A stretch of DNA of 64,000 nucleotides from a virus. Positions 44,680-64,000 of this stretch are shown here, piece after piece. A program made the position numbers and the translations under genes. The notes under the pieces are model-generated. The model made no database searches. It was not told the origin of the DNA and worked only from the letters and a program-made list of their open reading frames with translations. Position 1 is the stretch's first letter, and every line of letters begins with the position of its first letter. The stretch lies in UHGV virus genome UHGV-0277313. The stretch is one strand, 5' to 3'.

Positions 44680-45089
44680 TGAAGAAACATCTATTAGATA
44701 AAAGAAATTTATCATATTTGATCAACGACTGGGATGATTTAAATCTTCCGTTTACTATAAACGATAATGATATTGCATCTCAAGTCGTTGATTTCTTTTG
44801 TAAACAATCTGAATTAGTATATCCGGCAAAATCATATTTTGTTGCTATCGTTTATGCAAAATGTCTTGAAAACTTCTTTCATGAAGATTTTTATGAATGT
44901 TTGTCTGATAAAGATCTATTACCTGATGATAAGTTTTTCAAAACATATATTGACTCTCAAGAAATTTATGATAAGATATTAACACAAATTAAAGACCCGT
45001 TAACATATAAATCTGTCGAAAAGACTGTAAGTTATTTTAAAAAGGAATTTCTTATTGGAACTAATAATCAAACCAACAGGCCGTTGTAA
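44679..45089 (+). CDS. Hypothetical protein
   Basis: ATGA overlap with the upstream stop. Confidence 0.45.
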   Translation: MKKHLLDKRNLSYLINDWDDLNLPFTINDNDIASQVVDFFCKQSELVYPAKSYFVAIVYAKCLENFFHEDFYECLSDKDLLPDDKFFKTYIDSQEIYDKILTQIKDPLTYKSVEKTVSYFKKEFLIGTNNQTNRPL

Positions 45090-46802: not shown

Positions 46803-46868
46803 GCCTTGATTTTTAAATTTTTATAATTTATAATAAATAAAAATAAAGAATTTTATAAGGTTTATAAA
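46788..46868 (+). repeat. Conserved 5' leader of the TnpB-like gene (begins TTATTTTAAAATAAGCCTTGA)
   Basis: Same length and ~70% identity to the revcomp of 37796..37875. Overlaps the 3' end of the rSAM gene. Confidence 0.45.
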
Positions 46869-48176
46869 TTGAAAACAATTAGTTTGCCATATACTTGTTC
46901 AGAAGACGACCGAAACTTCATCAAAGATGAAATTCGGAAATCGTCTAATATGGTAAGATTTGCTTTCAACAGATTCAAAGATTCTAAGTCTGAAAAAGAC
47001 ATTAGATTGCTTTCTAAAAGCTTATCAAATGTTCCTTCGGATTCTTGGTTTATTCAATGTGCAATCAAGAAAGCAAATTATCTGTTATTAACCAATAAAG
47101 AAAAAGTTATTTTCGGAGGAAAATTTTATTTTTATCAAAGATTAAAACATAAATTAGATAAAGACAGGTTTAAATCAAGTAGATTGCTTGGGATTTATTC
47201 TCAAGGTGAAACACCGAAAGGTGGAAATAGAAAATTCAAACTAGATATAGCGAACAATCTAATCATTTTCAAATTCTCAAGATATAAATACATCAATCTC
47301 CAGTTACCTAAACTTCGTAAGAATTATCTTTATGAACTAATCAACTTAGAAGAGCAATGTAATCAGAAGTTATCTAATTTTAGTGTTGAATTAAAATTAG
47401 ATAAAATCTGCATAACGTTTGATGATTCCAAAATCTATACAAGTAATTATAATGGAAAATCAAATATAGTCGGTGCTATTGATATGAATCCTAATTATAT
47501 TGGATTTTCTATTTCTAAATTTTCAAATGGAAAAAGGAAGATTTTGCTCGAAGAGCAATATGATTTGTCTTACTTTACAAGAAATCTTCATAAAGCAACA
47601 GATGATGCTAAAGGTAAGCACCAAAACAGCAAACAGATATTTGAGCTTAAAGAGATTGTGAAAGATATAATCAAGAAATGCAAATTTTTCCACGTTGGAA
47701 AATTTGGCATTGAAGATTTGAATTTCAAACAAACAAATTCAGGAAAAGGTAAATCATTCAATAGATTAACGAAGAATAAATGGAAAAGAGAGGCACTGGT
47801 TTCTGCATTGAAGAAACAATGCTTACTTAACAAAATAGACTTCATAGAAGTTAATCCAGCTTATTCTTCATTTATTGGGAACCTATGTAATAATGCACCA
47901 GACCCAATAGCAGCAAGTTTGGAAATTGCTCGTAGGGCAATGTTCAAGTATATCAAAGGTCAGCTCTATCCAGAACTTATAAAAGTTGAAAGCTTGTTCA
48001 ACCTATGGAAGGAATCAGCAAGCTGGGTTTATTCGAGCTGGAAAGAACTGTTTGATATAGTAAAAACATCTAAAGTGAAATATAGACGTTCTTTGGAATC
48101 TTTTGATTCTGAAGTTTTTAGACTCAAGTCATCTAAATCTATGGTAAATTTATATAAAATTTATAATTGTTTATAA
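46869..48176 (+). CDS. TnpB/Fanzor-like RuvC-fold nuclease lacking the zinc finger (paralog b)
   Basis: Same motifs as 36479..37792 (IVGAIDMNPNYIGF, FGIEDLNFK, EVNPAYSSFIGN, APDPIAASLEIARRA). TTG start. Inserted between rSAM genes. Confidence 0.6.
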   Translation: MKTISLPYTCSEDDRNFIKDEIRKSSNMVRFAFNRFKDSKSEKDIRLLSKSLSNVPSDSWFIQCAIKKANYLLLTNKEKVIFGGKFYFYQRLKHKLDKDRFKSSRLLGIYSQGETPKGGNRKFKLDIANNLIIFKFSRYKYINLQLPKLRKNYLYELINLEEQCNQKLSNFSVELKLDKICITFDDSKIYTSNYNGKSNIVGAIDMNPNYIGFSISKFSNGKRKILLEEQYDLSYFTRNLHKATDDAKGKHQNSKQIFELKEIVKDIIKKCKFFHVGKFGIEDLNFKQTNSGKGKSFNRLTKNKWKREALVSALKKQCLLNKIDFIEVNPAYSSFIGNLCNNAPDPIAASLEIARRAMFKYIKGQLYPELIKVESLFNLWKESASWVYSSWKELFDIVKTSKVKYRRSLESFDSEVFRLKSSKSMVNLYKIYNCL

Positions 48177-48195
48177 TAGTGAGTTATTTTAATAA

Positions 48196-49302
48196 ATGAA
48201 TCCTTTAGAGTTTTATAAAAATAGTGATTACTATGAAATTGCTTGCATGTTATTTGAACCTTGCAATTTAAAATGTAAATTTTGTTTTGAAGATCATAAA
48301 AACAAAACAATCGACACAGATTACATTGAGAATATTTATAAAATAATTGATGAAAAGTTTTCGATTGATTATGAAAAATACAAACATTCTTTAAAGACAC
48401 TTTATATAATGATGTGGGGTGGCGAGATTTTTTATGACGCACTACCTGATGAAGTTTTTAAATCATATTACAAATTTGTCGATAATATAAAAGATTTGTT
48501 TGATAAAAAATTTCCAAATGTTAAAGTTATCTTTTCATGGTTATCAAACGGTGTATTTACAAACTATAAACGTGTCGAAGATATTGTCAAATATTCAAAA
48601 GGAATTATTAACTTTAGTTATGATCCTGTTAACAGATTCTCAACACATAAACAAAAAGATTTAATGGTAAAGACCGCAACCTATTTTAAAAAAATTGGTT
48701 TAGCTGATAAAATATCAATTACATTAACAAAAGACTCTATTAAAGGTTTTATTGAAAATGATGATTCATTAAAATACTTTAACAATATTGGATTCTTAAT
48801 TGATGTAAATTACTATATCGCAAATGTCAACTGGCAATCACTATTAGCGACAGACAATGAAATATTTACATTTTTTAAATGGGCAATAGATAACAAATTG
48901 TATAGAATAAAAGTATTGGAAAAATGTTTTGATTCTATTACAGGAAAGCCTTCATCTTCATATTGTAACTGTTTATGGTGTTCACAAATTACACATGGTC
49001 AATGGAGTATTGATTGTGCTAAATGTAGTTCGGTATTGCCACCAGAATTGTTTTACGGTGAATATACGCCACAAATAACAGAAGAAAATTCAAATCAAAT
49101 TAAGGCATCTATTGGATTAGTTAAACGAGGTTGTTTAGCTTGTGAATATCACCACATTTGTCAACACCCTTGTTGGATTTCCATAGTGTTTAAAGGATTT
49201 AAACCTTCAGTTTGCTTTTATAAACAAACTTATGATTATATAAAATCAAATGATGTTATTATTAATGATTTTTTGAAATGGAAACACAATGAAACAAAAT
49301 AA
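48196..49302 (+). CDS. Radical SAM/SPASM-like enzyme (array B, 3)
   Basis: CNLKCKFC and MWGGEIFYD motifs. C-terminal CNCLWCSQ...CAKCSS...GCLACEYHHICQHPC. Confidence 0.65.
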   Translation: MNPLEFYKNSDYYEIACMLFEPCNLKCKFCFEDHKNKTIDTDYIENIYKIIDEKFSIDYEKYKHSLKTLYIMMWGGEIFYDALPDEVFKSYYKFVDNIKDLFDKKFPNVKVIFSWLSNGVFTNYKRVEDIVKYSKGIINFSYDPVNRFSTHKQKDLMVKTATYFKKIGLADKISITLTKDSIKGFIENDDSLKYFNNIGFLIDVNYYIANVNWQSLLATDNEIFTFFKWAIDNKLYRIKVLEKCFDSITGKPSSSYCNCLWCSQITHGQWSIDCAKCSSVLPPELFYGEYTPQITEENSNQIKASIGLVKRGCLACEYHHICQHPCWISIVFKGFKPSVCFYKQTYDYIKSNDVIINDFLKWKHNETK

Positions 49303-50365
49303 TTTAAACAGTTTCGGTTTTGATTGTCTACTATTTGAACGTTGCAATCTTCATTGCACTTTTTGTCTTGAAGAACATTCTGTAAATGATATTGACATTC
49401 AATGGATCAGACAACTTCCGTCATTGTTATTAGAAAGATTTGAAAAAGAATATGAAAAACATTCTGAAACAAATCTTATTACTTTTCGTATTTGGGGAGG
49501 CGAATTGTTTTTTGATGCCATACCAAACGAATTATTTGAAGAATATAAGATGTTTGTTGAACAAACAAAACGTTTATTTAATAAAACTTTTCCTGAAATT
49601 AAATTAGATTTTGCATGGGTTTCAAATGGTGTATTTAAAAATATCGAACGTGTTATTAATTTATTAAAAGAAACTAATAGTGGAATTAATTTGAGTTACG
49701 ATCCTATAGGAAGGTTTCATAAAAAAGAATTAGAAGATTTAATGATTGAAAACGCTTTACACTTTCATTCATTGGGATTGTTGAATGAAATTTCAATCAC
49801 ATTAACTAAACATTGTATCAATGCATACGTAAACGATAAATCTCGACTTTTGGATTTAAAGTTCGCTAAAAAGATTGATATTAATTACTATATACCAAAC
49901 ATTAACTGGAAAACTTTACTTCCTTCTGACGACGATCTTTTCAACTTTTTTAAATGGGCAATCAATAATAAACTGTTTCAAATTATTGATCTGAATAGCT
50001 TGTTGTTAACACTGACTGGAAAAATGTCTAAATGTGTTAAAGGTTGCAACTGCCATAAACATTTATCAGCGTGTAAAAATTGTATTACATATAACTGTGT
50101 TAAAAGCTCAACAATATTTCCAAATGCAGATTTTTATGGTGATACAGTTATTACTGAAGACAACGTATCTGAAATTAAAAAATATAAAGGCATGTGCAAG
50201 CGAGGTTGCTTCTATTGTAAATATATAGATAAATGCCCCGGATGTTGCTGGACATCTATTATCTATAAAAATGCTACACTAGACGATTGCCCGTTCAAAA
50301 AAATTATAGAATATGTCGAACAAAATTCAAATATAAAAAATGAATTCATGCAATGGAAACTTTAA
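49289..50365 (+). CDS. Radical SAM/SPASM-like enzyme (array B, 4)
   Basis: CNLHCTFC and IWGGELFFD motifs. C-terminal CNCHKHLSACKNC...GCFYCKYIDKCPGCC. Confidence 0.65.
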   Translation: MKQNNLNSFGFDCLLFERCNLHCTFCLEEHSVNDIDIQWIRQLPSLLLERFEKEYEKHSETNLITFRIWGGELFFDAIPNELFEEYKMFVEQTKRLFNKTFPEIKLDFAWVSNGVFKNIERVINLLKETNSGINLSYDPIGRFHKKELEDLMIENALHFHSLGLLNEISITLTKHCINAYVNDKSRLLDLKFAKKIDINYYIPNINWKTLLPSDDDLFNFFKWAINNKLFQIIDLNSLLLTLTGKMSKCVKGCNCHKHLSACKNCITYNCVKSSTIFPNADFYGDTVITEDNVSEIKKYKGMCKRGCFYCKYIDKCPGCCWTSIIYKNATLDDCPFKKIIEYVEQNSNIKNEFMQWKL

Positions 50366-51252
50366 ACAATTTATCAATACAACCATCCTTTAAATGCAAT
50401 TGGAATTGTCAATTTTGTTATTTAGGTAATTTAAAAGCTGATACAACACTTTTAAATCTTAAAGTGTTAAAAGATAACCTATATGAAATTAAACAATTTT
50501 ACAAAATTAATCATGTACAAGTATTAGGTGGTGAGCCAAGCTTGCTTAATTGCTATTATTTGGAAGAGTTACAAGGATTAATTAAAGATTACCATGTTAC
50601 ATATGTCACTAATCTTTCAAACATGGAATTCGTAAATTTTTGCTTACAGCACAATGTGCAAATGACAATATCTGTCAATAAAGAAAGACAACACTTTGCA
50701 GAAACAGTAAAGAATTTAAAATTAATTAAAGGCTTGAAGAATATTCAGTTAAGCAGTGTCGTCTTACCTTCATTATTAAATGACGACATTAAAAATATTT
50801 TACAATTCTATAATTCTTTTGGGTTTGATGTATATTTCTTGAAGTATAATGCTTCAAAAACAAACAAACTTAATTACAACATAACAAATGAAGAGTACTA
50901 TAAATTTATTGATGAATTAATCAAACAATATCAGGTTGGGTGCTATAAATTTAAAATCAAAAATATTGATTTCTTGTTGCAAGACAATATTAATGCTATC
51001 AGTTGTGACTCGTTATTTATAAACCCTAATGGTAAATTTTCAACGATTACATATAATGACAACAACGAAGAGTATTTTGTTGAATTTGACACTGTTGAAC
51101 AATTTAATAAATTTTGTAACAGCACTAATGTAAAACAAAAAGATACGTGTAAACAATGCCTTTGTTATAAACAATGTGGTTCAAAAAATATTTATAGTTC
51201 GGATCAAAATAAATGCATGAATCTTTTTAAAATAAGAAATGAATTGCTATGA
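50353..51252 (+). CDS. Radical SAM/SPASM-like enzyme (array B, 5)
   Basis: CNWNCQFC and VLGGEPSLL motifs. C-terminal CKQCLCYKQCGS. Confidence 0.65.
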   Translation: METLNNLSIQPSFKCNWNCQFCYLGNLKADTTLLNLKVLKDNLYEIKQFYKINHVQVLGGEPSLLNCYYLEELQGLIKDYHVTYVTNLSNMEFVNFCLQHNVQMTISVNKERQHFAETVKNLKLIKGLKNIQLSSVVLPSLLNDDIKNILQFYNSFGFDVYFLKYNASKTNKLNYNITNEEYYKFIDELIKQYQVGCYKFKIKNIDFLLQDNINAISCDSLFINPNGKFSTITYNDNNEEYFVEFDTVEQFNKFCNSTNVKQKDTCKQCLCYKQCGSKNIYSSDQNKCMNLFKIRNELL

Positions 51253-52178
51253 AAAATTTAACACTATCAATAATGCCTTCATATAAATGCAATTTCAAGT
51301 GTCAATATTGTTATTTGGGTAATTTAATAAAAAATGACAACCTTTTAAATTTAGAAAATCTTGAGCATTCATTACTAGAATTAAAACAACTATATAACAT
51401 TAAAAATGTTAGTCTGTATGGTGGCGAACTATCATTACTTGATAACGTTTATTTACAACGTTTAGTGGATTTAATAAAAGTTAAATTACCTAAATCAAGT
51501 ATATCTTTAACAAGTAATTTTAGTAATGAAAATATATTAACTTTTTGTTTGCTTAATAATATCAAACTAAACGTTTCATTAAATGAAGAAAGATACCAAT
51601 ACTCAAAAACATTACAACAAATAAAGAAATATACAGGAACAAAGCTTTTTGATCTAACTGCTGTCGTATTACCATCTATTATAAACAAACATACAAATGA
51701 ACTTTATAAATTTTATAATGATTTAGGATTTGATGTTTTCTTTATTCAACATCATAATTCAATTCATCAAAAATCATATTCCATTTCACTAGATCAATTC
51801 TCAAAATTTTTATACGATTTCATTTGTTATCATTCAATGCAATCTGATGCTAAATTTAAAATCGAAAATTTAAATGTATTAAATGATACAGAGTTCAACC
51901 CAAACACAGAAAGCTATTTATTTATAAATCCAAACGGAAAATACTGTACAACTGTTTTTAAAGATAATATCGAACATTATGTAACATTCGACAACTTACA
52001 ACAATGGCAAACCTTTTGTGAAAAAAGCTATCAAATGTATGAAAATTCTTGTTCGACTTGTAAATTCTTTAACAGATGTAAAGCTGAACACCTTGAAACA
52101 TTAAACAATGATAATGAATGTTCCGGGTTAAAACACCTATTGACATCATTACAGAATCGTTCTATTATTAATTGGTGA
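51249..52178 (+). CDS. Radical SAM/SPASM-like enzyme (array B, 6)
   Basis: CNFKCQYC and LYGGELSLL motifs. C-terminal CSTCKFFNRCKAE. Confidence 0.65.
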   Translation: MKNLTLSIMPSYKCNFKCQYCYLGNLIKNDNLLNLENLEHSLLELKQLYNIKNVSLYGGELSLLDNVYLQRLVDLIKVKLPKSSISLTSNFSNENILTFCLLNNIKLNVSLNEERYQYSKTLQQIKKYTGTKLFDLTAVVLPSIINKHTNELYKFYNDLGFDVFFIQHHNSIHQKSYSISLDQFSKFLYDFICYHSMQSDAKFKIENLNVLNDTEFNPNTESYLFINPNGKYCTTVFKDNIEHYVTFDNLQQWQTFCEKSYQMYENSCSTCKFFNRCKAEHLETLNNDNECSGLKHLLTSLQNRSIINW

Positions 52179-52190
52179 GTCGTACGACGG
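52178..52190 (+). promoter_or_regulatory. Palindrome-box core AGTCGTACGACGG immediately upstream of 52200
   Basis: Same GTCGTACGAC palindrome as the fibre/Gly-rich promoters, but only 10 nt from the ATG. Confidence 0.3.
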
Positions 52191-52199
52191 ATTTTAAAT

Positions 52200-52826
52200 A
52201 TGGTAAATTCAAATACAAGAATTCAAAAAATTACAGCAAACTCAATTGTTGGTTTTATTTCACAATTTAATTCAACAGTTGTTGATCCTGCATACAATAC
52301 AGCAACGTATCATTCTGGTAACAAACCACATTTTTCAAAAACGGCTAACGGGTTAACAACACCACAATCAATACCTGATAATCAATTGTTAGGTACTGAA
52401 CGTACGTACTTGTCATCAAACGATACTAGAATAAATGCTGCTTCTTTATGTGCTGCATTATTAAGCATTACACAATCTTTAAGTAAGATTAGGAAGTTTC
52501 AATCACAATGGTATTTCAATACAAATGGTACACAAGCTTTAGTTGATAGTATGTCTGGAACAGGTATATTAACATTCCCTGACATTCCTGCTGGTACAAA
52601 AGAAGCCTCATGGACACGCGAAGGAAATACGAATATACAACTGTCGCCGCAAATGCTTTTTTCTGCAGGAAAGAAAATGATGGCTTCTGATGCGAATCAA
52701 ACAATTGTCAATTGTTTAAATGCTTGGGCTACTCAATGCCGTGATAATAATGAAATCATATACAAATTCTTTCAATGTTATTCAGATTGTCATGTAAATT
52801 GTTATGATTCACGAGGAAGAAGATGA
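52200..52826 (+). CDS. Hypothetical protein (possibly structural)
   Basis: 208-aa ORF preceded by the palindrome box. Confidence 0.5.
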   Translation: MVNSNTRIQKITANSIVGFISQFNSTVVDPAYNTATYHSGNKPHFSKTANGLTTPQSIPDNQLLGTERTYLSSNDTRINAASLCAALLSITQSLSKIRKFQSQWYFNTNGTQALVDSMSGTGILTFPDIPAGTKEASWTREGNTNIQLSPQMLFSAGKKMMASDANQTIVNCLNAWATQCRDNNEIIYKFFQCYSDCHVNCYDSRGRR

Positions 52827-53539
52827 TTAAAACTGGTTTGCCTTATGATTTTGAAACAATGCAACAAATAATGCAAGAAGGTGCAATTGTTGATGTAACT
52901 AATATCAGCTATCCATCTATTCCAAAGGAAGATAACGTAAAAACAAGTTTGATCTATTTAAGAAATACAAACTTTGATAATGTTCATTTGGATTTTCAGA
53001 AAGCTGATTATAATTTAAAATCAGAATTCTTAGATTGCTATTTTTCTGGCGGAAGCTTTCCTTGCAAACTTAAAGAATTGTCTGATACAATATTGCATGC
53101 AATATTTAAAATCCTAAATATCAATAATGAATTAGAAACCATATTAACCGAACAAGAAGAAACTTTATATATAAATTCACATAAAGAACAATTAAATGAA
53201 TTAATTCAGCTCTCAATATCTTTACCGTTATTTTTGATCAATCGTTTAGATAATATTGATTTTGAAATATCTTTTGACGATTTAGAAAAATCAAATGACG
53301 AAACTTGTAAAGATATCATTAATTTGATTATTGATTCGCCTGAATTTTGTCTTTTATATTCTAAAGATTTAGGAATGCAACCTAAATTTTATGAAAAGCT
53401 TTTTACATTAGATAACAATATTTTATTTGAGAATATCTGTAATCATACACCTTTTCAAACTTTGATGTTTGGAATCGCAGACGAACAAAATTGGAACGCA
53501 TTCGTAAATTCGATAAAGGAAGTAATAAATGTTTTATAA
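52823..53539 (+). CDS. Hypothetical protein
   Basis: ATGA overlap with the upstream stop. Confidence 0.5.
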   Translation: MIKTGLPYDFETMQQIMQEGAIVDVTNISYPSIPKEDNVKTSLIYLRNTNFDNVHLDFQKADYNLKSEFLDCYFSGGSFPCKLKELSDTILHAIFKILNINNELETILTEQEETLYINSHKEQLNELIQLSISLPLFLINRLDNIDFEISFDDLEKSNDETCKDIINLIIDSPEFCLLYSKDLGMQPKFYEKLFTLDNNILFENICNHTPFQTLMFGIADEQNWNAFVNSIKEVINVL

Positions 53540-54311
53540 TAATATTAATGTAAAAACAACTGATATTTGTCAACTTCTTCCTTTATGTATTAAAAAGACT
53601 GCAAATATTAATAAAAATTTTATTGGTGAAATACATATAGATGATGTTCAATCTATATATAAAACAACTAACAAAAGCATTACCTCAAAAGAGGAAGCTG
53701 AAAGAATCATTAATTCTACAAAAGCTATTAAATATTTTCAAGATTTTAAAACTTTGTTGCTCAATAATGAATTGGATTTATTCTTTGACAATTATTCAGG
53801 TGAAGACATTCTAGGTACATATTACTTATATCAAAATTCACAGTTCGAAAATTTTGCTTCATTGTTAAGTTCGGATTCTATTGTTTATTCAACTATAGAG
53901 AATACATATCATAAAAATACGCAGGTATTAGATGTAAACATACCTGTTGATTTATTTGATAACATTTTGATCCAATATGATGCACTATCTTATGATGCTG
54001 AAAACAATTTTATTAACGATTACTTTTCGCATGATGAAATTATTAATATGCTAAATGATACTGTTAATAAAGGATTAAAAACAGCATTACAAATGTTTTT
54101 GCAAAACGACGGCAGTTTGTTACCTTCTAATAATAAATGTGAACTACAAGCTTTATTATTAATGATGCTAAAAGTTCCATCAATACCTGTTAAATTATCA
54201 ATCCTTGATAACAGCAGGTACAATAGCACAAGAAATATTTTTAGACCGCACAAACAAATTAATAAACAAAAAATTCAAGAACTGATACAACCAAACTTTA
54301 TTTTGCCATGA
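53529..54311 (+). CDS. Hypothetical protein
   Basis: 260-aa ORF. Confidence 0.5.
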   Translation: MFYNNINVKTTDICQLLPLCIKKTANINKNFIGEIHIDDVQSIYKTTNKSITSKEEAERIINSTKAIKYFQDFKTLLLNNELDLFFDNYSGEDILGTYYLYQNSQFENFASLLSSDSIVYSTIENTYHKNTQVLDVNIPVDLFDNILIQYDALSYDAENNFINDYFSHDEIINMLNDTVNKGLKTALQMFLQNDGSLLPSNNKCELQALLLMMLKVPSIPVKLSILDNSRYNSTRNIFRPHKQINKQKIQELIQPNFILP

Positions 54312-55285
54312 ATGAATTAATAATCTATTTGAAACTTACTAACCGTTGTCAATTGCGTTGCCAACACTGTTATAATGCTGTTTCAAAATTTAATGACGAC
54401 TTATCTGTTGATACTTTAAAACAGGCAATTTCTTTTATCAATAACAAAACACTGACAAATAATGTAACATTAATATTACACGGCGGTGAACCTCTATATG
54501 GCGGAATACAAAAATCCAAATATGTCATTGATAATGTTGATAAAAAAGTCAATCTTTATATAACAACAAATTTAATGTACGATATTAATGAAGAGACGTT
54601 AAATTTCTTCAAACAATTCAAATTAATTTCAACATCATGGGATTACAAAATTCGTTTTCAAAATAAGCAACAATTAAAACTTTGGGAAGATAATGCTAAA
54701 AAACTAATAGAATCAAACATTAGTATTCAACCTATAATTTCGATCAATAAATATTTAATAAACGAATTAAAACCAGACACTTTGTTTGTTTATTTTAAAC
54801 AATTTGATATATCAAAATTAAATTTTGAACGGATTACAGAAACTGGTAATGCAGCTAAATTTAATGTCAAAGCAAATAATAGTGATATTGATAGATGGTT
54901 ATATGATGCATATATAGAAAATATCAATAAGTTTAATTTTACAATTCCATTGTTTGAAAGTTGTGAAGAAGCTGTCTTTCATAATAATTTGATAGGGTGC
55001 AGAAAACGGCAATGTCAAAAGAAAATAATTACAATCAATACAGATGGAACGATATGTGGTTGTCCAAACAGTTATCAATTTACATATGGTGATGTTTATG
55101 GAAGAACAAATGTTGATGTCTACAACTCTTTAATTACAAAAGAATTAATCAGGAATAACAATTGTTACATTTGCCCATACTTTAAATATTGTAACGGAGA
55201 TTGTTGCCAACTCAATTGGGATGAAACAGGTTGTCCTGGAATGCCGTCAATATTTAACTATTTGATAAATAAAGCCGGGAATTAA
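54308..55285 (+). CDS. Radical SAM/SPASM-like enzyme (array B, 7)
   Basis: NRCQLRCQHC and LHGGEPLYGG motifs. C-terminal GCRKRQC...CGCPNS...CYICPYFKYCNGDCC. Confidence 0.65.
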   Translation: MNELIIYLKLTNRCQLRCQHCYNAVSKFNDDLSVDTLKQAISFINNKTLTNNVTLILHGGEPLYGGIQKSKYVIDNVDKKVNLYITTNLMYDINEETLNFFKQFKLISTSWDYKIRFQNKQQLKLWEDNAKKLIESNISIQPIISINKYLINELKPDTLFVYFKQFDISKLNFERITETGNAAKFNVKANNSDIDRWLYDAYIENINKFNFTIPLFESCEEAVFHNNLIGCRKRQCQKKIITINTDGTICGCPNSYQFTYGDVYGRTNVDVYNSLITKELIRNNNCYICPYFKYCNGDCCQLNWDETGCPGMPSIFNYLINKAGN

Positions 55286-56916: not shown

Positions 56917-57540
56917 TCACTTCTTATAAACTTCATTTGCACCAATGATTCCTTGCTCTCGTAAGTGTTTTTTAAAACAACGACGACAACAGGATTCATA
57001 TTTCACATCTTTACTTTCACAACCTGCGTTGCCAGCAAGATATTTACCACCTGACACCCTAATATGGTGCGTTGCACGACGACCACAATCACAAATACCA
57101 ATTGTTTCTTCTAGTTCATCAGCGATAGCCAATAATGCGGAACTTCCTTCAAACAGATCGCCTTCGGCAGTTGTTTTCAATCCATAACACATCACTGGAA
57201 TATTTAAGTCATCAACAACATCACTTAAATAATAAATATCTTCTTTCTTACAAAATTGTGATTCATCAACGAATATGATATCGAGATTTTCAACATCAAC
57301 AAATTTAGGAAGATCTTTAAAATTACCTGAATCCAAAAATAGACATTCTGGCCCTTCTGGAATAGGCCGTGAACATGTTGAACCAAACTGACCGTGTCCA
57401 AATGCCCCATTTCTTGTATCTGTTGTTGGTTTAATAATTAAAGTCTTTTTACCTTTTTCTTTATATGAATGATTTTTACAAATCAACAAAGAACTCTTGC
57501 TGGAACCCATTGTTCCGTAGATAAAAAATAATTTAGCCAC
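56917..57540 (-). CDS. tdk: Thymidine kinase
   Basis: P-loop YGTMGSSKSSLL, IIFVDESQF, and C-terminal zinc ribbon CDCG...CRRC. Confidence 0.9.
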   Translation of the reverse strand: MAKLFFIYGTMGSSKSSLLICKNHSYKEKGKKTLIIKPTTDTRNGAFGHGQFGSTCSRPIPEGPECLFLDSGNFKDLPKFVDVENLDIIFVDESQFCKKEDIYYLSDVVDDLNIPVMCYGLKTTAEGDLFEGSSALLAIADELEETIGICDCGRRATHHIRVSGGKYLAGNAGCESKDVKYESCCRRCFKKHLREQGIIGANEVYKK

Positions 57541-57596
57541 AATTTAGCCTTTCTGGAGTGTTTGTTTAGATAAAATCAGAACTATTGAAACATCAG

Positions 57597-58241
57597 TCAA
57601 TTTTTTAAAATGACATCCAAAACTAACTGCTGATATTCCTCTAATGTACCGTTATTATACAATGTAAAATCTTCTAAACATAAACCTGCCAAAGATCTTT
57701 CAGATGCATGAACATTCTTTAATGTTTCAGGTAAATCAACTTCTTCACCTTTACTTTTAGCCACATTATACTTTTGTGCATCAATGTACCACGCTGGCAA
57801 TCCCCCTCTTTTAACCCTATAAACGATACCACCCAAATCATGAATCATTTTAACTTCATTAGGAAAGCGAACATCTGTAATTAAATAGGTACCATCATAG
57901 TCAGAGTTTGATAATCTATGTTTAACTACATATACCCAAAAAGCATTGTCGATAGTATTTCTAAAACATTCTGTCCCGATTAATTGCAAAGCAAGTCGAG
58001 GTGTAAACTCTTTTCCTAAAGCTTCAGACCAGAATTCATCTTTCGCTTCTCTAAACTGTCTTGATTCAACAGTATCTCCTTGAAGCAATTTCCTACCCCA
58101 GCCAAAAGACACAGATGCAACATCCTTAACTGCATCCCCAAAAGAAATTTTTCTAAATTTACAACTATTTTTTATTAAAGTATCAGCTGCAGTATCTTTT
58201 CCCGAACCTGCAAGTCCAGAAAAACCTATAATTTTAGTCAT
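57597..58241 (-). CDS. P-loop nucleotide kinase, T4 gp1-like deoxynucleoside monophosphate kinase
   Basis: N-terminal MTKIIGFSGLAGSGKDTAADTL resembles the dNMP kinase N-terminus. Confidence 0.6.
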   Translation of the reverse strand: MTKIIGFSGLAGSGKDTAADTLIKNSCKFRKISFGDAVKDVASVSFGWGRKLLQGDTVESRQFREAKDEFWSEALGKEFTPRLALQLIGTECFRNTIDNAFWVYVVKHRLSNSDYDGTYLITDVRFPNEVKMIHDLGGIVYRVKRGGLPAWYIDAQKYNVAKSKGEEVDLPETLKNVHASERSLAGLCLEDFTLYNNGTLEEYQQLVLDVILKN

Positions 58242-58774: not shown

Positions 58775-60526
58775 ATGGCTAGCACAGATATTGAAACCAA
58801 AACTCTTGTCATTAATAAATTAGATACAGCAAAATTAAAAGAATTACAAACAGCTGGCGAAATTAAGAATAATGAAGTTTATGTCACAACTGATCCACTT
58901 TATCATGACTTAAGCAATATCGCTCCAATGGCTGTTAGTAAAGCTTTAGTTACTAATGATAAAGGACTTATTGCTTCATCTGAAACAACCTCTGAAGAAA
59001 TTGGTTTTGTTCACGGTGTAACAAGCGGTATTCAAGAACAAATCAATACAAAAGCTAACCAAACAGAAGTCACAAATAATCTAGCTCTAAAAGCTAACAT
59101 TGAATCACCAGAACTGACTGGCAAACCTTTAGCGCCGACAGCTGATGCCGGAACTAATGATAAACAGATTGCTACTACAGAATTTGTTACAACAGCAATC
59201 AGTAATGCAACCCCTGGTGTTGATAATGTAACAATCGAATCTTTTGATAATTCTGCTGCTGCAGGTGGTTCGACACACGATATTCGTGTTAAAGACGGCG
59301 GCCTCTCTATTGGAAAATTATCATCAACTGATCTCGTTTTAAAAACTGGTGAAGTTCAAACGGGTGCTAAATTACCTTCTTATGATAAAGTAAAAGAAAT
59401 GGTTGATAATGCAACACCAGTTGTTGATTCTAAAACAATTTCATATAATGAACAAACTAAATTACAAAGTATTGGCGTTATTAACAAAAACACAAACGAC
59501 TCAATGTATCATTGGGTTGGTACACTACAAGAATATAATGCTGCTGTCGAAAATGGAACAATTAAAGAAAATTGGGTTTGCTGCATTACCGACGATTACA
59601 TTGAAGGAAAAACTTTTGCTGGTGAAATAATTCAAGTCACAAAAACTTTCGAAGAAGAAAGTAATCATATTGCTTTTACTGAAAAATGTATGACAAAAAA
59701 TTATATTTCAGTATTTCAGGATCGTATTTTTATTTACCCTGATGAATATACTTTAGACGATAATTTCTTGGGCATTACTTTCACAAAAAATATGGCTGTC
59801 GGAAGTGTTGTTACAGTCAATTACTTTAAAGGCATACCATCAACAAAAATCGATGAAGTAATTGCAATCGGTGAAAAGATTCCGACTCCAACAGAAAACG
59901 ATACATATTTGAATTATACTGACAATCAAGTATCGTGGAAAGCCAATCCATATACTAAAACAGAGGTTGATGATAAAATCACAACTGTTACAAATGCCAC
60001 ATACTCAAAAACAGAAATTGACGAAAAAATAACGAATGTTGAAAAGGCTGGCTTTGTTAAAATTTGGGCTGGTGAAACAGCTCCAGAAGGTTATTTATTA
60101 TGCGATGGTTCAGCGATTAGCAGAACAACATACTCTGCGCTATTTGCCGCAATTGGGACGTTATATGGCGTTGGGGATGGAAGTTCAACATTCAATTTAC
60201 CTAATTTTAATGACCGATATGCCATAGGTTCAAATGTGTCAGGAAAGTACATTAGTGAATGTCTTCCTAATATTACTGGTCAGTTTGTTCCTTCTCAAGG
60301 AGATAACGACTCATATGCACGTTTTGGAACAGGTAGCAATAAAATTGTAACAGGTTGTTTTTATACAGCAAACGATGTAGGCTCTGGTTCAACACTAGAT
60401 GAAACCACTGGCAATTATACAGGCGGTTCTTTACATTTTGATGCATCACACTCTTCAAGTATTTATAAAAACAATGCAAAAGTACAACCTGATTCAATAT
60501 GTGTTATTTATTGCATACGTTATTAA
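58775..60526 (+). CDS. Tail fibre protein with phage tail-collar domain. Constant N-terminal part (to ~60213) plus currently expressed C-terminal cassette A.
   Basis: TNDKQIATTEFVTTAI fibre motif. Tail-collar signature FVKIWAGETAPEGYLLCDGSAISRTTYSALFAAIGTLYGVGDGSSTFNLPNFNDRY. Ends ...ICVIYCIRY. Confidence 0.8.
   Translation: MASTDIETKTLVINKLDTAKLKELQTAGEIKNNEVYVTTDPLYHDLSNIAPMAVSKALVTNDKGLIASSETTSEEIGFVHGVTSGIQEQINTKANQTEVTNNLALKANIESPELTGKPLAPTADAGTNDKQIATTEFVTTAISNATPGVDNVTIESFDNSAAAGGSTHDIRVKDGGLSIGKLSSTDLVLKTGEVQTGAKLPSYDKVKEMVDNATPVVDSKTISYNEQTKLQSIGVINKNTNDSMYHWVGTLQEYNAAVENGTIKENWVCCITDDYIEGKTFAGEIIQVTKTFEEESNHIAFTEKCMTKNYISVFQDRIFIYPDEYTLDDNFLGITFTKNMAVGSVVTVNYFKGIPSTKIDEVIAIGEKIPTPTENDTYLNYTDNQVSWKANPYTKTEVDDKITTVTNATYSKTEIDEKITNVEKAGFVKIWAGETAPEGYLLCDGSAISRTTYSALFAAIGTLYGVGDGSSTFNLPNFNDRYAIGSNVSGKYISECLPNITGQFVPSQGDNDSYARFGTGSNKIVTGCFYTANDVGSGSTLDETTGNYTGGSLHFDASHSSSIYKNNAKVQPDSICVIYCIRY
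60187..60213 (+). repeat. Invertase crossover site 1 (AACATTCAATTTACCTAATTTTAATGA) inside the fibre gene, encoding TFNLPNFND
   Basis: Exact 27-nt inverted copy at 60800..60826. Further copies at 63115, 63395 and 63978. Confidence 0.75.
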
Positions 60527-60799
60527 TATTTTATACAGAAACAAACAACAACAGCCGATTGTTGTACAGGCACATTGTCTTTGTAGGCATTGTTTAATGT
60601 TTCAATGCGTGTGTAAACACCATCAGATGCTTTGGTATTGGAAATAGCCCCGCTATACCCTTGCGCGATGATGCTTTTGTTTCCACCGTCACCTGACCCG
60701 CCACCCCAATATGAATAGAGCGTTGATTGTGGATTCGGCAAGCTTTCCGCAAGATACGCCCCAACACCTCCACGATTTCCTCTTCCCTGCGGGATCCTG
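60523..60799 (-). CDS. Alternative tail-fibre C-terminal cassette B (silent, inverted)
   Basis: Reading from site 2 on the minus strand continues the fibre frame: FNLPNFNDRIPQGRGNRGGVGAYLAESLPNPQ...VVVCFCIKY. Confidence 0.65.
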
Positions 60800-60826
60800 T
60801 CATTAAAATTAGGTAAATTGAATGTT
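60800..60826 (-). repeat. Invertase crossover site 2 (inverted exact copy of site 1)
   Basis: The revcomp equals site 1 over 27 nt. Confidence 0.75.
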
Positions 60827-61156
60827 AGTTTTGCTGAAAATGATTGCTATTTCATTTAAAAATATCAGATTTATATAAAAACATTTGTAATTAAACCGTC
60901 TTAACAATTAATCAAATAAACACTAATACACAATAGAATTAAAATATTAAACAATATCACAAATAAAAAATTTTTATAATATTGAAAATTTTTATTTAAT
61001 ATGTGATTCTTAAATCATTAATCAACAAATTGAAAGATTGTAATAATGTCAAAACATCGAGTATACCCTTCTGCTGCTTTAAATCGTAAATACAAGAAAA
61101 ATGCTGAAAAGAAGAGGAAAGAATTTGAAAAAGTTCAAGAAGTATCAAAGAGAAAA

Positions 61157-61834
61157 GTGTATTGTTATTTACGTGTTTCAACAGATATGCAAAATGTTGA
61201 ATCGCAAAAGATTGGAGTAAAAGAATTAGCTAAACGGAAACAATTGATTGTTGATGAATATGTAATTGACGATGGCATTTCAGGAACAGTTAAAGCAGAA
61301 AATAGAAATTTAGGTAAATTGTTAAATAAATTAAAAAAGAATGACATTTTAATTTGTTCTGAACTGTCTAGACTATCACGTTCAATGGTTGAACTTTTAT
61401 CTTTATTGAACAAAGCTTTAAAAACTGGCGTTAAAATTTATTCGGTAAAAGAAAATTATGAATTAGGTGATGACATTACATCTCAAGTCATTGCATTTGC
61501 ATTTTCTTTATGTGCTGACATTGAACGAAGAATGATTAGTGCACGTACTAAAGAAGGTTTAGCGAACGCAAAGGCTAAAGGAAAAGTTTTAGGAAGACCA
61601 AAGGGGTACGTCTGTAAACATCATGTAACAGATGGCAAAAAATACAAGTATTTAAAATTAAGGCTTTTAGGTTTTTCTAAAATAAAAATAGCTAAAAGGT
61701 TCCGAATATCATATAAAACTATTCAGAATTGGGTTAAGCAAAATAAATTAGATGATTATCTAAAACATGTTAAAGTAAAGACAAACTATAAAAAGTTTGA
61801 TTTATTTGCTTTATCACTCATCAACCATATCTAA
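61157..61834 (+). CDS. Serine recombinase, Gin/Hin/Cin-type DNA invertase
   Basis: N-terminal VYCYLRVSTDMQNVESQK with catalytic Ser. Resolvase core, then C-terminal HTH KIAKRFRISYKTIQNWV. GTG start after Shine-Dalgarno AGAGAAAAG; the track ORF starts at 61046. Confidence 0.75.
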   Translation: MYCYLRVSTDMQNVESQKIGVKELAKRKQLIVDEYVIDDGISGTVKAENRNLGKLLNKLKKNDILICSELSRLSRSMVELLSLLNKALKTGVKIYSVKENYELGDDITSQVIAFAFSLCADIERRMISARTKEGLANAKAKGKVLGRPKGYVCKHHVTDGKKYKYLKLRLLGFSKIKIAKRFRISYKTIQNWVKQNKLDDYLKHVKVKTNYKKFDLFALSLINHI

Positions 61835-62188
61835 TCTTTTTTTAACTTCTGCTTTAGTCAAAAACCGTTTTATAACTCTTGAAAAGTCATCATTGTCAAC
61901 CAAATCGTTTCTTTCTAAATCATCGACCAAATATCGCCCTGCTTTACTATCTAAAAAGTCGCGAGTTAATTCTGGAGACATGTCACATTCTGATTGCAAA
62001 TGTTCAGAAACAATATTCCAATAAGTTTGCAACAATTCTTCAGGGATATCAACTTCCTTTAGTTCACCCCAAAAACCATGTTCTTCATTTTCAGTTGGGA
62101 GAATTACGAAATCAACACCTTCGTCTTTTTCTAATTCTTCCATAAAGGATTTTAAATAAATTTTGATTTGTTCTAGATCTGGTTGCAT
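61814..62188 (-). CDS. Acidic protein downstream of the fibre-like gene (possible tail-fibre assembly/chaperone)
   Basis: 124 aa. Positioned like Tfa genes, immediately 3' of 62193..63038. No recognisable motif. Confidence 0.3.
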   Translation of the reverse strand: MQPDLEQIKIYLKSFMEELEKDEGVDFVILPTENEEHGFWGELKEVDIPEELLQTYWNIVSEHLQSECDMSPELTRDFLDSKAGRYLVDDLERNDLVDNDDFSRVIKRFLTKAEVKKRLDMVDE

Positions 62189-62192
62189 TAAA

Positions 62193-63038
62193 TTAACCCC
62201 AATTTCTTAATGTGATTTTAACAGCATCTGTCCATGTAGCAACACTTCCGTCAGTAGTTAATAATTTTCCACTATTGCCTGTTTGACTAGGAATTGCATC
62301 AACTTTATCTATTGCATTCTTAACAAATGCGGTTGTTGCTATTTTTGTAGAATTGTCACCTTCTAATACTGTAGGAGCTTTAGGCTCACCAGTAAATTCA
62401 GGATTATTTAATGTTGCATAAGAAGATAGGTCGATATCGCCAGCAAGTTTATCCCAAAAACCAGCTAATTCACCAACTGGTGCAACCCATGCATAATTAT
62501 CTCCAGTATCTTTAACATTATACACATCACCTTCTGTTAAATTTTCTGAAGGTAAATCAGTTTTAGTTTCAACAGATCCTTTATAACGATATACTGACGA
62601 AATCTTGCTTGAAATCTCATCTTTTGTGAAGGCGTCTGTTATACCGTATCCTGCTAAAGTGCTGGCTTTATTAGCTTTTTCTGAATCGTAATTGTCGTAT
62701 TTAGTTACTTTATCAGCTGAAATGCCAGAATTAACAGCAATAATTTGCGTTTCATTTAACGCGTTTTGTTTGGAATCTAAATTTAAATCAACCCATGAAG
62801 CACTAGTTCCATCAGTTGTTAGAACATTTCCTGATTGATTAGTTTGATCAGGCAGTGCATCAATGCTTGAAATCGCTGTTGTAACGTATTCTGTTGTCGC
62901 AACGTTTTTGGAATTGTCTGATAATTCTTTAGTCGGTGCCTGTAATGAACCAGTAAACTCTTTATCACCAGTAATTGTTTGTGCTGTATCAATAGTTAAT
63001 AAAGTATTCGAATTTAAAGTAATCAACCCATGTGTCAT
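62193..63038 (-). CDS. Tail-fibre-like protein located inside the invertible region
   Basis: Repeats LPDQTNQSGNVLTTDGTSASW and IPSQTGNSGKLLTTDGSVATW. NSTKIATTAFVKNAI motif. Confidence 0.6.
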   Translation of the reverse strand: MTHGLITLNSNTLLTIDTAQTITGDKEFTGSLQAPTKELSDNSKNVATTEYVTTAISSIDALPDQTNQSGNVLTTDGTSASWVDLNLDSKQNALNETQIIAVNSGISADKVTKYDNYDSEKANKASTLAGYGITDAFTKDEISSKISSVYRYKGSVETKTDLPSENLTEGDVYNVKDTGDNYAWVAPVGELAGFWDKLAGDIDLSSYATLNNPEFTGEPKAPTVLEGDNSTKIATTAFVKNAIDKVDAIPSQTGNSGKLLTTDGSVATWTDAVKITLRNWG

Positions 63039-63114
63039 ATTACAAGCTCCTAATTTGAGTTATAATTAAGAACAAATTTAAAATCTTTAAACCGTAAACT
63101 TCAAAATTTAAACT

Positions 63115-63139
63115 AACATTCAATTTACCTAATTTTATA
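63115..63139 (+). repeat. Invertase crossover site 3
   Basis: AACATTCAATTTACCTAATTTTATA is identical to site 1 except for the last bases. Confidence 0.65.
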
Positions 63140-63385
63140 GGGACTTTTCTTCCTAATTCTCAACAGCAGACTGTGGCTATTTCTTCAACTGGCGAACCGC
63201 TTGTATATGTCGGTACAAAAAATATCACAACAACATTTCACAACAGAGTCGATGGGGACCCATCTTTTTCAGGAATAGTTATCGGAACAAATGCAGATAG
63301 TGGTGCTTATAAATATCAATCTGGTTTGACTGGCAACTTATCTTTATCAGGAGAATCCGGAGTTAATTACTATATTAAATATTAA
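63140..63385 (+). CDS. Alternative tail-fibre C-terminal cassette C (silent)
   Basis: In frame with the site: FNLPNFIGTFLPNSQQ...GVNYYIKY. No independent start signal. Confidence 0.5.
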   Translation, partial: GTFLPNSQQQTVAISSTGEPLVYVGTKNITTTFHNRVDGDPSFSGIVIGTNADSGAYKYQSGLTGNLSLSGESGVNYYIKY

Positions 63386-63394
63386 ATATTAACT

Positions 63395-63418
63395 TTTAAT
63401 TTACCTAATTTTAATGAT
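63395..63418 (+). repeat. Invertase crossover site 4
   Basis: TTTTAATTTACCTAATTTTAATGA. Confidence 0.65.
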
Positions 63419-63703
63419 AGAATTCCTCAAGGTAATGGTAATCGTGGTGGAGTTGGCGCACTGTTGAATGAAAGCTTGCCAAATATCAAAGGAAGCTTGG
63501 TTGATGATTTAGTTAATTCTACTCAAACTGCATCTGGTGCATTTAGCATATCAGCTATTAGATCAGATACAACAGGGGCTGCAACTGGAACTCTTAGAGT
63601 CGCCACATTAAATTTTGACGCTTCCAGCTCTTCTAACACATACAAAGACAATGCGCCAGTTCAGCAAGCGGCTGTTATTGTTTGTTTCTGTATAAAATAT
63701 TAA
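63419..63703 (+). CDS. Alternative tail-fibre C-terminal cassette D (silent)
   Basis: FNLPNFNDRIPQGNGNRGGVGALLNESLPNIKG...VIVCFCIKY. Close paralog of cassette B. Confidence 0.6.
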   Translation, partial: RIPQGNGNRGGVGALLNESLPNIKGSLVDDLVNSTQTASGAFSISAIRSDTTGAATGTLRVATLNFDASSSSNTYKDNAPVQQAAVIVCFCIKY

Positions 63704-63977
63704 TAACGTATGCAAAATATAATCGAAATATTTGCAGGAACGACAAGCGAAACATTTTTATAAATTGACGACGATTTAGACGCGTCCATCAACAATCTTG
63801 TTGGGTGTGTTTCTGGAGTTGATCCATAATATTGCTGAACAGAACTATCGGCTGTAAAACAACCCACTGTATTATATAAAATGGAGTGGTCTATATTTAC
63901 TTCACCCGTAATGTTCGGAAGTTCGCCAGCTGACGTAATACCGACTTTATGATCTGTTCTTTGCCACACCGTTTTAG
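63700..63977 (-). CDS. Alternative tail-fibre C-terminal cassette E (silent, inverted)
   Basis: Minus-strand frame from site 5 reads FNLPNFNAKTVWQRTDHKVGITSAGELPNITG...SIIFCIRY. Confidence 0.6.
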
Positions 63978-64000
63978 CATTAAAATTAGGTAAATTGAAA
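63978..64000 (-). repeat. Invertase crossover site 5 (inverted; runs to the window edge)
   Basis: CATTAAAATTAGGTAAATTGAAA is the revcomp of TTTCAATTTACCTAATTTTAATG. Confidence 0.6.

Follow-up and report, generated by a model that had tools for sequence, protein, structure and literature searches.

A Min- or shufflon-like multiple recombination system at a tail-fibre gene of an uncultivated phage of about 310 kb

Described switches and the comparison with the present locus

Tail-fibre switching by DNA inversion is a textbook mechanism and, to our knowledge, such switching is known mostly from a few enterobacterial elements (Mu, P1, e14 and p15B) and from bifidophages, in which the enzyme is a tyrosine recombinase. 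The subject of the present analysis is a locus at positions 58775–64000 of a 64,000-nt stretch of the UHGV virus genome UHGV-0277313 (hereafter the window, meaning the whole stretch of DNA that was analysed), which comprises a tail-fibre gene, an array of recombination sites with alternative C-terminal cassettes and the gene of a small serine recombinase. In function, the locus belongs with the multiple recombination systems of the Min or shufflon kind, here acting on a phage receptor-binding protein. The class itself is known; the new elements are the recombinase lineage, the position of the site in the tail-collar motif, the invertible core that carries the recombinase, a fibre gene that is itself invertible in a related lineage (lineage 2), and an excision product. 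It is very probable that the locus is a programmed switch, operating by multi-site conservative site-specific recombination, for the receptor-binding tip of the tail fibre of a phage of 309–314 kb.

In the Min system of the plasmid prophage p15B, a serine invertase acts on six mix sites and produces multiple inversion. The locus shares with Min a small serine recombinase, several sites in both orientations in a tail-fibre gene, promoterless C-terminal segments and many isomers (PMC6109161). It differs in that the phage enzyme is Mpi-like, ~31–32% identical to Gin/Hin-type enzymes, and carries an N-terminal extension of 37 amino acids (aa), and in that the fibre is of another type, with the site lying in the tail-collar motif. 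Moreover, the centre of the array is an invertible segment with the phage recombinase gene and a second fibre-like gene, excision has been observed between direct sites, and the carrier is an uncultivated phage of ~310 kb.

Gin of Mu, Cin of P1 and Pin of e14 are serine recombinases that likewise swap fibre C-termini by inversion, while in Hin of Salmonella the recombinase gene lies within its own invertible segment, as it does here. In the hix sites (hixL/hixR), the inverted repeat comprises the core and the inner half-site, with the crossover at the repeat edge. Whereas these systems have two sites and two states, five to eight sites are found here and direct sites recombine. Gin, Cin, Pin and Hin depend on Fis and on an enhancer and are inversion-only (PMC3798978), a restriction of the Gin/Hin family that is contradicted here by a deletion and a circle formed between two direct sites, A and D. 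The crossover site of the Gin family is 26 bp long, with two related 12-bp half-sites around a 2-bp core; in the phage sites, the exchange maps to a trinucleotide, AAC, and the arm is conserved on one side only.

The shufflon of R64/IncI plasmids is also comparable, since multiple inversions shuffle the C-terminal cassettes of an adhesin (pilV), and its sfx sites have one conserved and one unconserved arm. In contrast to the phage locus, the R64 shufflon employs the tyrosine recombinase Rci, modifies the tip protein of a pilus encoded by a conjugative plasmid, and works by inversion only. A PilV–tail-collar fusion targeted by inversions has been described by Milman et al. (PMC9881135). Rin of Bifidobacterium prophages resembles the locus in acting on a phage receptor-binding protein with several C-terminal cassettes through short asymmetric repeats, and its isomers were also recognised by genome comparison (PMC6109161). 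The differences are its tyrosine recombinase, its 11-bp rix sites, its position beside and not inside the array, and its small temperate phages.

Mpi of Bacteroides fragilis belongs to the closest curated family and, like the phage enzyme, is a small serine recombinase with many target sites (PMC4747536). However, the targets of Mpi are promoters, which it inverts in trans at 13 loci scattered over the chromosome, whereas the phage enzyme has N- and C-terminal extensions and its sites lie inside coding sequence. A systematic survey of gene-altering inversions reported Mpi-family recombinases to be enriched beside inversion targets in bacteria and did not scan viruses (PMC9881135). In the literature on phage invertons, on Mpi with tail fibres and on huge phages, no description of the present system was found; a paper on huge phages makes no mention of inversions, tail fibres or recombinases (PMC7162821), and a 2026 cyanophage preprint cites classical papers only.

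With five sites in both orientations and natural arrangements that are interconvertible by inversion, the locus falls in the shufflon-type functional class. With one constant part and promoterless cassettes that fuse to it in frame, it also represents fibre C-terminal switching. The Mpi repeat consensus is ARACGTWCGT, and no match to it was found in the window.

Fibre gene, site array and natural isomers

The tail-fibre open reading frame (ORF; 58775–60526, + strand) encodes 583 aa, matches tail-fibre PHROGs and includes a Pfam Collar domain at aa 426–481 (E-value 9e-22). Its constant part (58775–60186, +; aa 1–470) ends inside this domain, and its sequence is kept across all isomers. A 23-nt probe taken from the fibre gene, TTCAATTTACCTAATTTTAATGA, was searched on both strands of the window with up to 3 mismatches, using 100 shuffles as control. 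AAC-NTTYAATTTACCTAATTTT is present in exactly five copies, at probe positions 60191 (+), 60800 (−), 63119 (+), 63395 (+) and 63977 (−), with 0 copies in the shuffles. The five copies reported in a preliminary description of this DNA are confirmed in this way, while the codons for TFNLPNFND, placed there at 60187–60213, are one base off and correspond to 60188–60214, in the frame that starts at 58775.

The sites, named A to E, have the orientations +, −, +, + and −. Site A (60187–60214, +) consists of AAC (60187–60189, the putative point of crossover discussed below) and the conserved arm ATTCAATTTACCTAATTTTAATGAC, and encodes (S)TFNLPNFND, with fibre aa 472–480 forming the C-terminal end of the Collar domain. 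Site B (60799–60826, −) is an exact inverted copy of site A, 28 nt long and 100% complementary to 60187–60214. Sites C (63115–63141, +; AACATTCAATTTACCTAATTTTATAGG) and D (63391–63417, +; AACTTTTAATTTACCTAATTTTAATGA) follow, and site E (63977–64000, −) is truncated by the window end; its full sequence and flank are seen in contig L002, and alignment with this contig places the expected AAC at 64001–64003. Perfect 28-nt inverted repeats relate A to B (60187–60214/60799–60826) and B to C (60804–60831/63110–63137). Each site has a variable left context on one side and, on the other, the invariant AAC, a conserved arm of ~20 bp and a cassette. The five left contexts are the fibre constant part, the two ends of a central segment (sp1 and sp2), the end of cassette 3 (c3end) and the right flank. 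In the window strain, AAC is followed by the hexamer ATTCAA with cassettes 1–3, TTTTAA with cassette 4 and TTTCAA with cassette 5.

Cassette 1 (60215–60526, +), which ends in VIYCIRY, is the C-terminus now joined to the fibre and is found behind three different left contexts in other contigs. The remaining cassettes are silent, namely cassette 2 (60523–60798, −; ending VCFCIKY), which lies tail-to-tail with cassette 1, cassette 3 (63142–63385, +; NYYIKY), cassette 4 (63418–63703, +; VCFCIKY), which is a paralogue of cassette 2 with 51% aa identity, and cassette 5 (63700–63976, −; IIFCIRY), tail-to-tail with cassette 4. As previously proposed, each site copy opens into a different C-terminus in the fibre frame and without a start of its own: the segments from site to stop are all open and comprise 112, 100, 89, 103 and 100 aa. 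The common terminal motif, at first attributed to three of these segments, is in fact found in all five (...YCIRY, ...FCIKY, ...YYIKY, ...FCIKY and ...FCIRY). The cassettes are 13–51% identical to one another, contribute 80–103 residues after the tail-collar motif TFNLPNF, and share a framework that consists, in order, of TFNLPNF, LPNITG, FDAS.SS.Y and [FY][CY]I[KR]Y.

Across contigs, the same N-terminal part of the fibre is fused to cassettes 1, 2, 3, 4 and 5, giving proteins of 583, 571 (L002/L005), 560 (L006 and L004), 574 (variant P0121, in L026) and 571 aa (L001/L003), respectively; the window's own 583-aa protein is not on record in the contig collection. Presumably, translation is limited to the cassette that directly follows the fibre constant part. 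Among solved structures, the distal parts of long and short tail fibres resemble the cassettes (8kec, E-value 3e-7; 9cuy, E-value 0.2), and exchange of the cassettes would be expected to alter receptor specificity or host range.

Since an inverted repeat of 82 nt with 90% identity (60504–60585/63641–63722) spans the tail-to-tail stop junctions of cassettes 1/2 and 4/5, these two pairs are regarded as paralogous blocks. The convergent stop codons of each pair overlap (TTATTAA).

Natural isomers were mapped by splitting the window region into blocks, which were then placed on other contigs. Lineage 1 refers to the contigs of window type (L001–L006) and lineage 2 to those that encode a recombinase homologue with 78% identity (L014–L023). 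L002 and L005 correspond to the window with only 60187–60826 (640 bp) inverted, which leads the fibre into cassette 2, with 0 mismatches over 9,169 + 3,202 + 640 bp. L006, which is also identical to the window, uses site C and shows the fibre joined to cassette 3 and sp2 to cassette 5, the segment with the recombinase, 124-aa and 281-aa genes being inverted relative to the fibre. This inversion agrees with the earlier claim that the invertase gene and the second fibre gene flip together with the DNA. In L001 and L003 (99.5–99.7% identical), the fibre is joined to cassette 5 and two cassette groups are exchanged around the central segment, while L004 (98–99%) combines a fibre–cassette 3 fusion with eight sites and with cassettes from both other strains (L004 9157–9460; 13157–14139). 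One L004 cassette (c9) lacks the C-terminal CI[KR]Y motif and is apparently frameshifted. Altogether, four arrangements are found at 100% identity and others in near-identical strains, among which the number of sites (5, 5 and 8) and the cassette content vary.

In lineage 2, the sites, cassettes and left contexts number six each, and at least eight arrangements are seen across ten contigs. Here, the gene for the fibre constant part has a site at both ends (e.g., L014 7681 (−) and 9222 (+)) and flips or moves as a block, which adjoins either genome flank in different contigs. In a model with blocks ending in left contexts or cassette ends, and with inversions between opposed sites only, 64 arrangements are reached for the window type and 384 for lineage 2, and every cassette reaches the fibre. 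Every completely observed arrangement is 1–4 inversions away in this model. The proposal of a multi-cassette switch with direct and inverted sites, undergoing sequential inversions of the Min or shufflon kind, is borne out by the natural isomers L001–L003, L005 and L006. Site E was also considered as the junction of a second fibre gene, in which case the array would consist of two separate two-state switches, but in L002 the sequence past site E contains a 194-aa ORF (+) unrelated to the fibre, and this reading was therefore rejected.

It could be argued that the rearrangements are real but represent old, fixed strain differences, so that the array would be a fossil without present switching. 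Each long contig shows a single arrangement, strains differ in cassette content (5, 5 and 8 sites), and one L004 cassette has decayed, all of which would fit a fossil. Nevertheless, the isomers are otherwise identical over 13–20 kb, four arrangements occur within one accession series (ERZ27290582/652/672/676), and all the window cassettes and the recombinase are intact. Furthermore, many contigs of 2–5 kb break exactly at the sites, with 37 such blocks for lineage 2. There is, thus, only a small chance that the array is a fossil.

Crossover position and excision between direct sites

Polymorphisms within the site make it possible to locate the exchange. Three junctions are informative in lineage 1, namely sp2–TTTCAA–cassette 5 in L006, c3end–ATTCAA–cassette 1 in L012 and fibre–TTTTAA–cassette 4 in L026, and in all of them the hexamer goes with the cassette; counting L002, four independent junctions show this. 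In lineage 2, where position 13 is A or G and positions 19–22 are TTTT, TTTA or CTGT, each of the 6 cassettes keeps one site variant over 3–5 left contexts, while each left context carries 2–4 site variants. The sequence directly left of AAC is unrelated between contexts. Because site polymorphisms always travel with the cassette and the contexts left of AAC are unrelated, strand exchange takes place within the invariant AAC (60187–60189 at site A), at the repeat edge and at the boundary between the Ser471 and Thr472 codons. The exchange is reciprocal and conservative. A 26-bp dyad, ACATTCAATTTA-CC-TAATTTTAATGA, with the crossover at CC (positions 14–15), was ruled out, since position 13 and the hexamer (positions 4–9) follow the cassette.

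The same observations bear on the possibility that the arrangements were generated by general homologous recombination or template switching at repeats of 22–28 bp, with the recombinase being unrelated to them, e.g., a replication or packaging resolvase. The repeats are indeed perfect over 22–28 nt, large replicating phage genomes recombine actively, and the link between enzyme and sites is one of sequence association and not of biochemistry. However, every informative junction places the exchange to the left of position 4 in lineage 1 and of position 13 in lineage 2, which is a single edge of the repeat, with no scatter along its length, and the longer 82-nt inverted repeat with 90% identity is not a breakpoint in any isomer. 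Moreover, the recombinase stays with the sites and the collar-type fibre in four diverged lineages, including the minimal loci L024 and L025. Homologous recombination is, thus, a very improbable explanation.

The site may be read as a 2-bp overlap (AA or AC) with two unequal half-sites, of which one, (C)NTTYAATTTAC(C), is well specified and the outer one only poorly, while the further conserved bases, CTAATTTT, may be a reflection of the LPNF codons. The hix sites of Salmonella have a comparable build, with the core AA, a conserved inner half-site and, in hixR, a poor outer half-site.

Recombination is not restricted to opposed sites. In sample ERZ27290582, the contig L026 (310,151 bp) joins window position 60213 directly to 63391 and thereby fuses the fibre to cassette 4; the resulting variant P0121 is found on this contig only. 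From the same sample, the 3,345-bp megahit contig L012 carries the junctions sp1–cassette 2, sp2–cassette 3 and c3end–cassette 1, which cannot coexist in one linear genome with single-copy blocks. The first and last 141 nt of L012 are identical and, because this terminal overlap equals the k of the assembler (141), L012 represents a closed path of 3,204 bp. The sizes agree exactly (313,355 − 310,151 = 63391 − 60187 = 3,345 − 141 = 3,204), and L026 and L012 are the exact reciprocal products of recombination between sites A and D in the window-type arrangement. The genome represented by L026 has lost the A–D unit (60187–63390; 3,204 bp between direct sites), that is, cassettes 1–3, the recombinase and the 124-aa and 281-aa genes, all of which are contained in the L012 circle. 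Site A bounds both the 640-bp inversion of L002 and the 3,204-bp deletion of L026. Direct sites recombine, whether the product is a circle or a tandem duplication. Of the mechanism first proposed, inversion is supported by the isomers, but inversion alone is contradicted by these reciprocal products.

The deletion and circle products are also central to the question of whether the arrangements are artefacts of assembly at the repeat, with the circular contig being a graph cycle. All the evidence comes from contigs, of which L003, L005, L013 and L026 end at or near the switch, and the closed path of L012 has junctions incompatible with one single-copy linear genome. Nevertheless, the isomer contigs come from megahit with k141 and k119, SPAdes, Logan (k-mers of 31), JGI and NCBI, and the repeat of 22–28 nt is shorter than every k used, so that the junctions require spanning reads. 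Five pipelines give concordant junction types. In addition, the deletion contig and the circle agree to the base, with 3,204 bp obtained three times and a reciprocal exchange of hexamers. An origin in assembly is, therefore, extremely improbable.

A more serious alternative is a pure invertase switch as in Min, in which the deletion between A and D would be a rare accident or an intermolecular event in concatemers and not designed excision. This alternative differs from the preferred explanation, a multi-site recombination switch, only in whether excision belongs to the biology of the system. At least 15 arrangements are explained by inversions alone, against a single observed deletion, which costs the genome both its recombinase and the 281-aa fibre-like gene, and a tandem duplication would likewise assemble as a cycle. 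On the other hand, both reciprocal junctions dominate ERZ27290582 and assemble without branching, and the 5–8 sites and cassettes of different strains are as expected from the loss and gain of blocks. A pure invertase is, hence, a reasonable possibility, albeit one to which less than an even chance is given.

More speculatively, the A–D unit, with its recombinase gene, second fibre-like gene and three tips, could be a circle able to excise itself and to re-integrate, a proposal that is rather unlikely at present. If true, the array would be a platform for cassette exchange, nearer to an integron than to an invertase switch, at which huge phages infecting one cell would acquire, discard and swap receptor-binding tips. 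The presence of 5, 5 and 8 sites with overlapping sets of cassettes in related strains would then be accounted for. It would also imply an Mpi-like recombinase without the topological filter that restricts Gin/Hin-type enzymes to inversion.

The proposed mechanism of the multi-site switch can be outlined as follows. The Mpi-like recombinase would bind the conserved arm, pair two sites and exchange strands at a 2-bp overlap in AAC, so that each exchange would re-pair a left context with a cassette, always in frame. Between opposed sites, the intervening DNA inverts, and it can include the recombinase, 124-aa and second fibre-like genes; successive inversions lead to the 64 arrangements, with any of the five cassettes behind the fibre gene. 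Between direct sites, the exchange excises the DNA, as in the single A x D event observed, represented by a genome with the fibre–cassette 4 fusion and the corresponding 3.2-kb circle. Progeny populations would, consequently, be mixtures of isomers.

Several points weigh against this explanation. The circle could instead be a tandem duplication, produced by intermolecular A x D recombination in concatemers, or a graph cycle, and no contig other than the deletion product has the fibre fused to cassette 4. The evidence for heterogeneity within samples is at the level of contigs, namely contigs broken at sites (L013 and four alike) and the L012/L026 pair. The catalytic role of the recombinase and the effect of the cassettes on receptor specificity are both deduced from sequence, and no enhancer or accessory site was identified at the locus. 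As for the site itself, conservation among the 15 distinct left arms amounts to no more than an enrichment in A at −3 to −6 (~1 bit), and their symmetry with the mirror of the right arm is weak (4.5/12 dyad matches vs 3.7 ± 0.39 in shuffles). Such a poor second half-site is unusual for a serine-recombinase site bound by a dimer; hixR likewise has a poor half-site.

The recombinase, its genomic setting and the implications of the switch

The recombinase gene (61046–61834, +) encodes 262 aa and is assigned to PHROG 125 (DNA invertase). The preliminary description had recognised a small serine recombinase with an RVSTDMQ motif and a C-terminal HTH between the sites, and this holds: the Resolvase domain PF00239 is matched at aa 38–180 (E-value 2e-34), with YLRVSTDMQ aligned to YVRVSTNDQ of Gin, and HTH_23, HTH_17 and HTH_28 are matched at aa 203–235, below the Pfam cut-offs and at consistent positions. 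Its description as Gin-type was, however, too specific. The best curated family is NCBIfam NF009949, the master DNA invertase Mpi family (E-value 3e-64; 216.3 bits over profile positions 2–198 of 203), whereas the Gin structure 4m6f matches the catalytic domain only (E-value 1e-13), with ~31% identity as counted from the alignment. Because the NF009949 score of 216.3 bits falls below the curated cut-off of 272 bits, the recombinase is classified as a relative of Mpi and not as an equivalog. The Hin/Gin-type genes of enterobacterial phages are 31–33% identical to it, and neither in relationship nor in length (262 aa vs ~180–195 aa) is it close to the Gin/Hin/Cin/Pin/Min invertases. Its basic N-terminal extension of 37 aa and its C-terminal tail are shared by only six protein clusters (65–98% identity), the next homologues having ~198 aa and ~50% identity.

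The recombinase, the sites and a collar-type fibre co-occur in four recombinase lineages with 65–100% identity (L001–L006, L014–L023, L024 and L025). In L024, a diverged recombinase lies beside sites of the same sequence, two cassettes and a 553-aa homologue of the 281-aa protein, while in L025 a diverged recombinase lies beside a short collar protein with a TFNLPNC site. The module holds no recombinase other than the serine recombinase, and thus none of the Rci tyrosine type. Because of its persistent linkage to the sites and the lack of another recombinase nearby, the Mpi-like enzyme is the likely catalyst of the exchanges.

The central segment begins with the AT-rich spacer sp1 (60827–61045), which lies upstream of the recombinase gene, moves with it in all isomers and presumably contains a promoter. 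Downstream of the recombinase gene, the 124-aa acidic protein (61814–62188, −; PHROG 8020, unknown function) and the 281-aa tail-fibre-like protein (62193–63038, −; PHROG 4209 tail fiber, E-value 6e-18) are encoded, followed by the spacer sp2 (63039–63114), which lies upstream of the 281-aa gene and forms the other end of the segment. The 281-aa protein has neither a collar domain nor a site, and shares the motif FTGxPxAPT...IATTEFV with the main fibre. Throughout lineages 1 and 2, the 124-aa gene accompanies the 281-aa gene without exception; it is present in L001–L023 and absent from L024. The recombinase gene (+) and the 124-aa gene (−) are convergent and share 21 nt at their 3' ends (61814–61834). 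In some lineage 2 isomers (L008 2109–3143; L017, L019 and L022), the 281-aa ORF is called as 344–358 aa, antisense through a site and a cassette, and this extension is probably an isomer-dependent calling artefact.

Site-like sequences were also noted outside the five sites. A partial site, CAATTTACCTAAATTT, at 61306–61321 (−), inside the recombinase gene, matches 15/16 core positions without the AAC-NTT part. As a sixth site or an enhancer it was rejected, since it coincides with the codons for NLGKL, survives only in part in lineage 2 and has decayed in L024, where the peptide is nevertheless conserved; its occurrence is probably due to chance. Single exact matches of 22 nt to the site were found in unrelated metagenome-assembled genomes (MAGs) or genomes (L027, L029, L030, L033, L035, L036 and L037), the taxa with such lone matches being Rickettsiaceae, Bacilli, Alphaproteobacteria, Paceibacterota, Bacteroidetes OLB10 and Brachyspira pulli. 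No recombinase homologue was found in the stretches fetched around them. At least one of the matches, that in L033, lies within an ordinary collar-domain gene and, because lone matches include such a gene, the DNA of the site also occurs in genes that do not switch.

An identical recombinase is encoded by 14 contigs in public collections, including NCBI LR756497.1 (309,049 bp) and two ENA contigs of 313,355 bp, and the lineage 2 recombinase (78% protein identity) on many contigs of 312–314 kb in ENA, JGI/IMG-VR and NCBI. Since the recombinase and its homologue sit on contigs of 309–314 kb, the carrier of the switch is an uncultivated phage of ~310 kb. Some of the phage contigs are binned into MAGs labelled Erysipelotrichaceae or Melainabacteria, labels that are unreliable as evidence of the host, and a scan of bacterial genomes for the site returned the same phage contigs inside MAGs and single unrelated matches, with no host assignment. 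Among annotated phage records, megablast of the region gave zero matches, and tblastn of the recombinase gave at best 45–48% identity (Bacteroides phage B124-14 and human faecal phage fragments), with no annotated relative of the module there.

Other features of the surroundings are worth recording. A thymidine kinase gene and a gene similar to deoxynucleoside monophosphate kinases lie just upstream of the fibre gene (56917–58241, −), and the flanks of related loci (L001/L004) encode GapR-like and GcrA-like DNA-binding proteins. A 397-aa ORF at 8347–9540 (+) matches the phage transposase families PHROG 506 and 12300 and may be an insertion element within the phage genome. Tandem arrays at 20218–25833 and 48196–55285 each contain 6–8 paralogous ORFs of ~300–370 aa, several of which have weak radical S-adenosylmethionine/4Fe–4S matches; the strain L004 lacks 44719–55259, including the second paralogue array.

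In practical terms, the locus provides phage engineering with a compact recombinase that comes together with a ~23-bp site and a set of tips that can be interchanged. For metagenomics, such switches break or permute 'complete' assemblies of huge phages, and fibre families that resemble strain diversity (14 clusters, 81–87% identity) are states of one locus. Dozens of public assemblies hold isomers and, thus, site usage, the exchange point and the balance of inversion versus excision are quantifiable from existing reads. As to the biology of these phages, the same strategy as in the classical switches is found in an uncultivated phage of very large size, whose recombinase belongs to the Mpi lineage of Bacteroides. 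The position of the site within the most conserved motif of the widespread tail-collar domain suggests a general route to switchable collar-type fibres.

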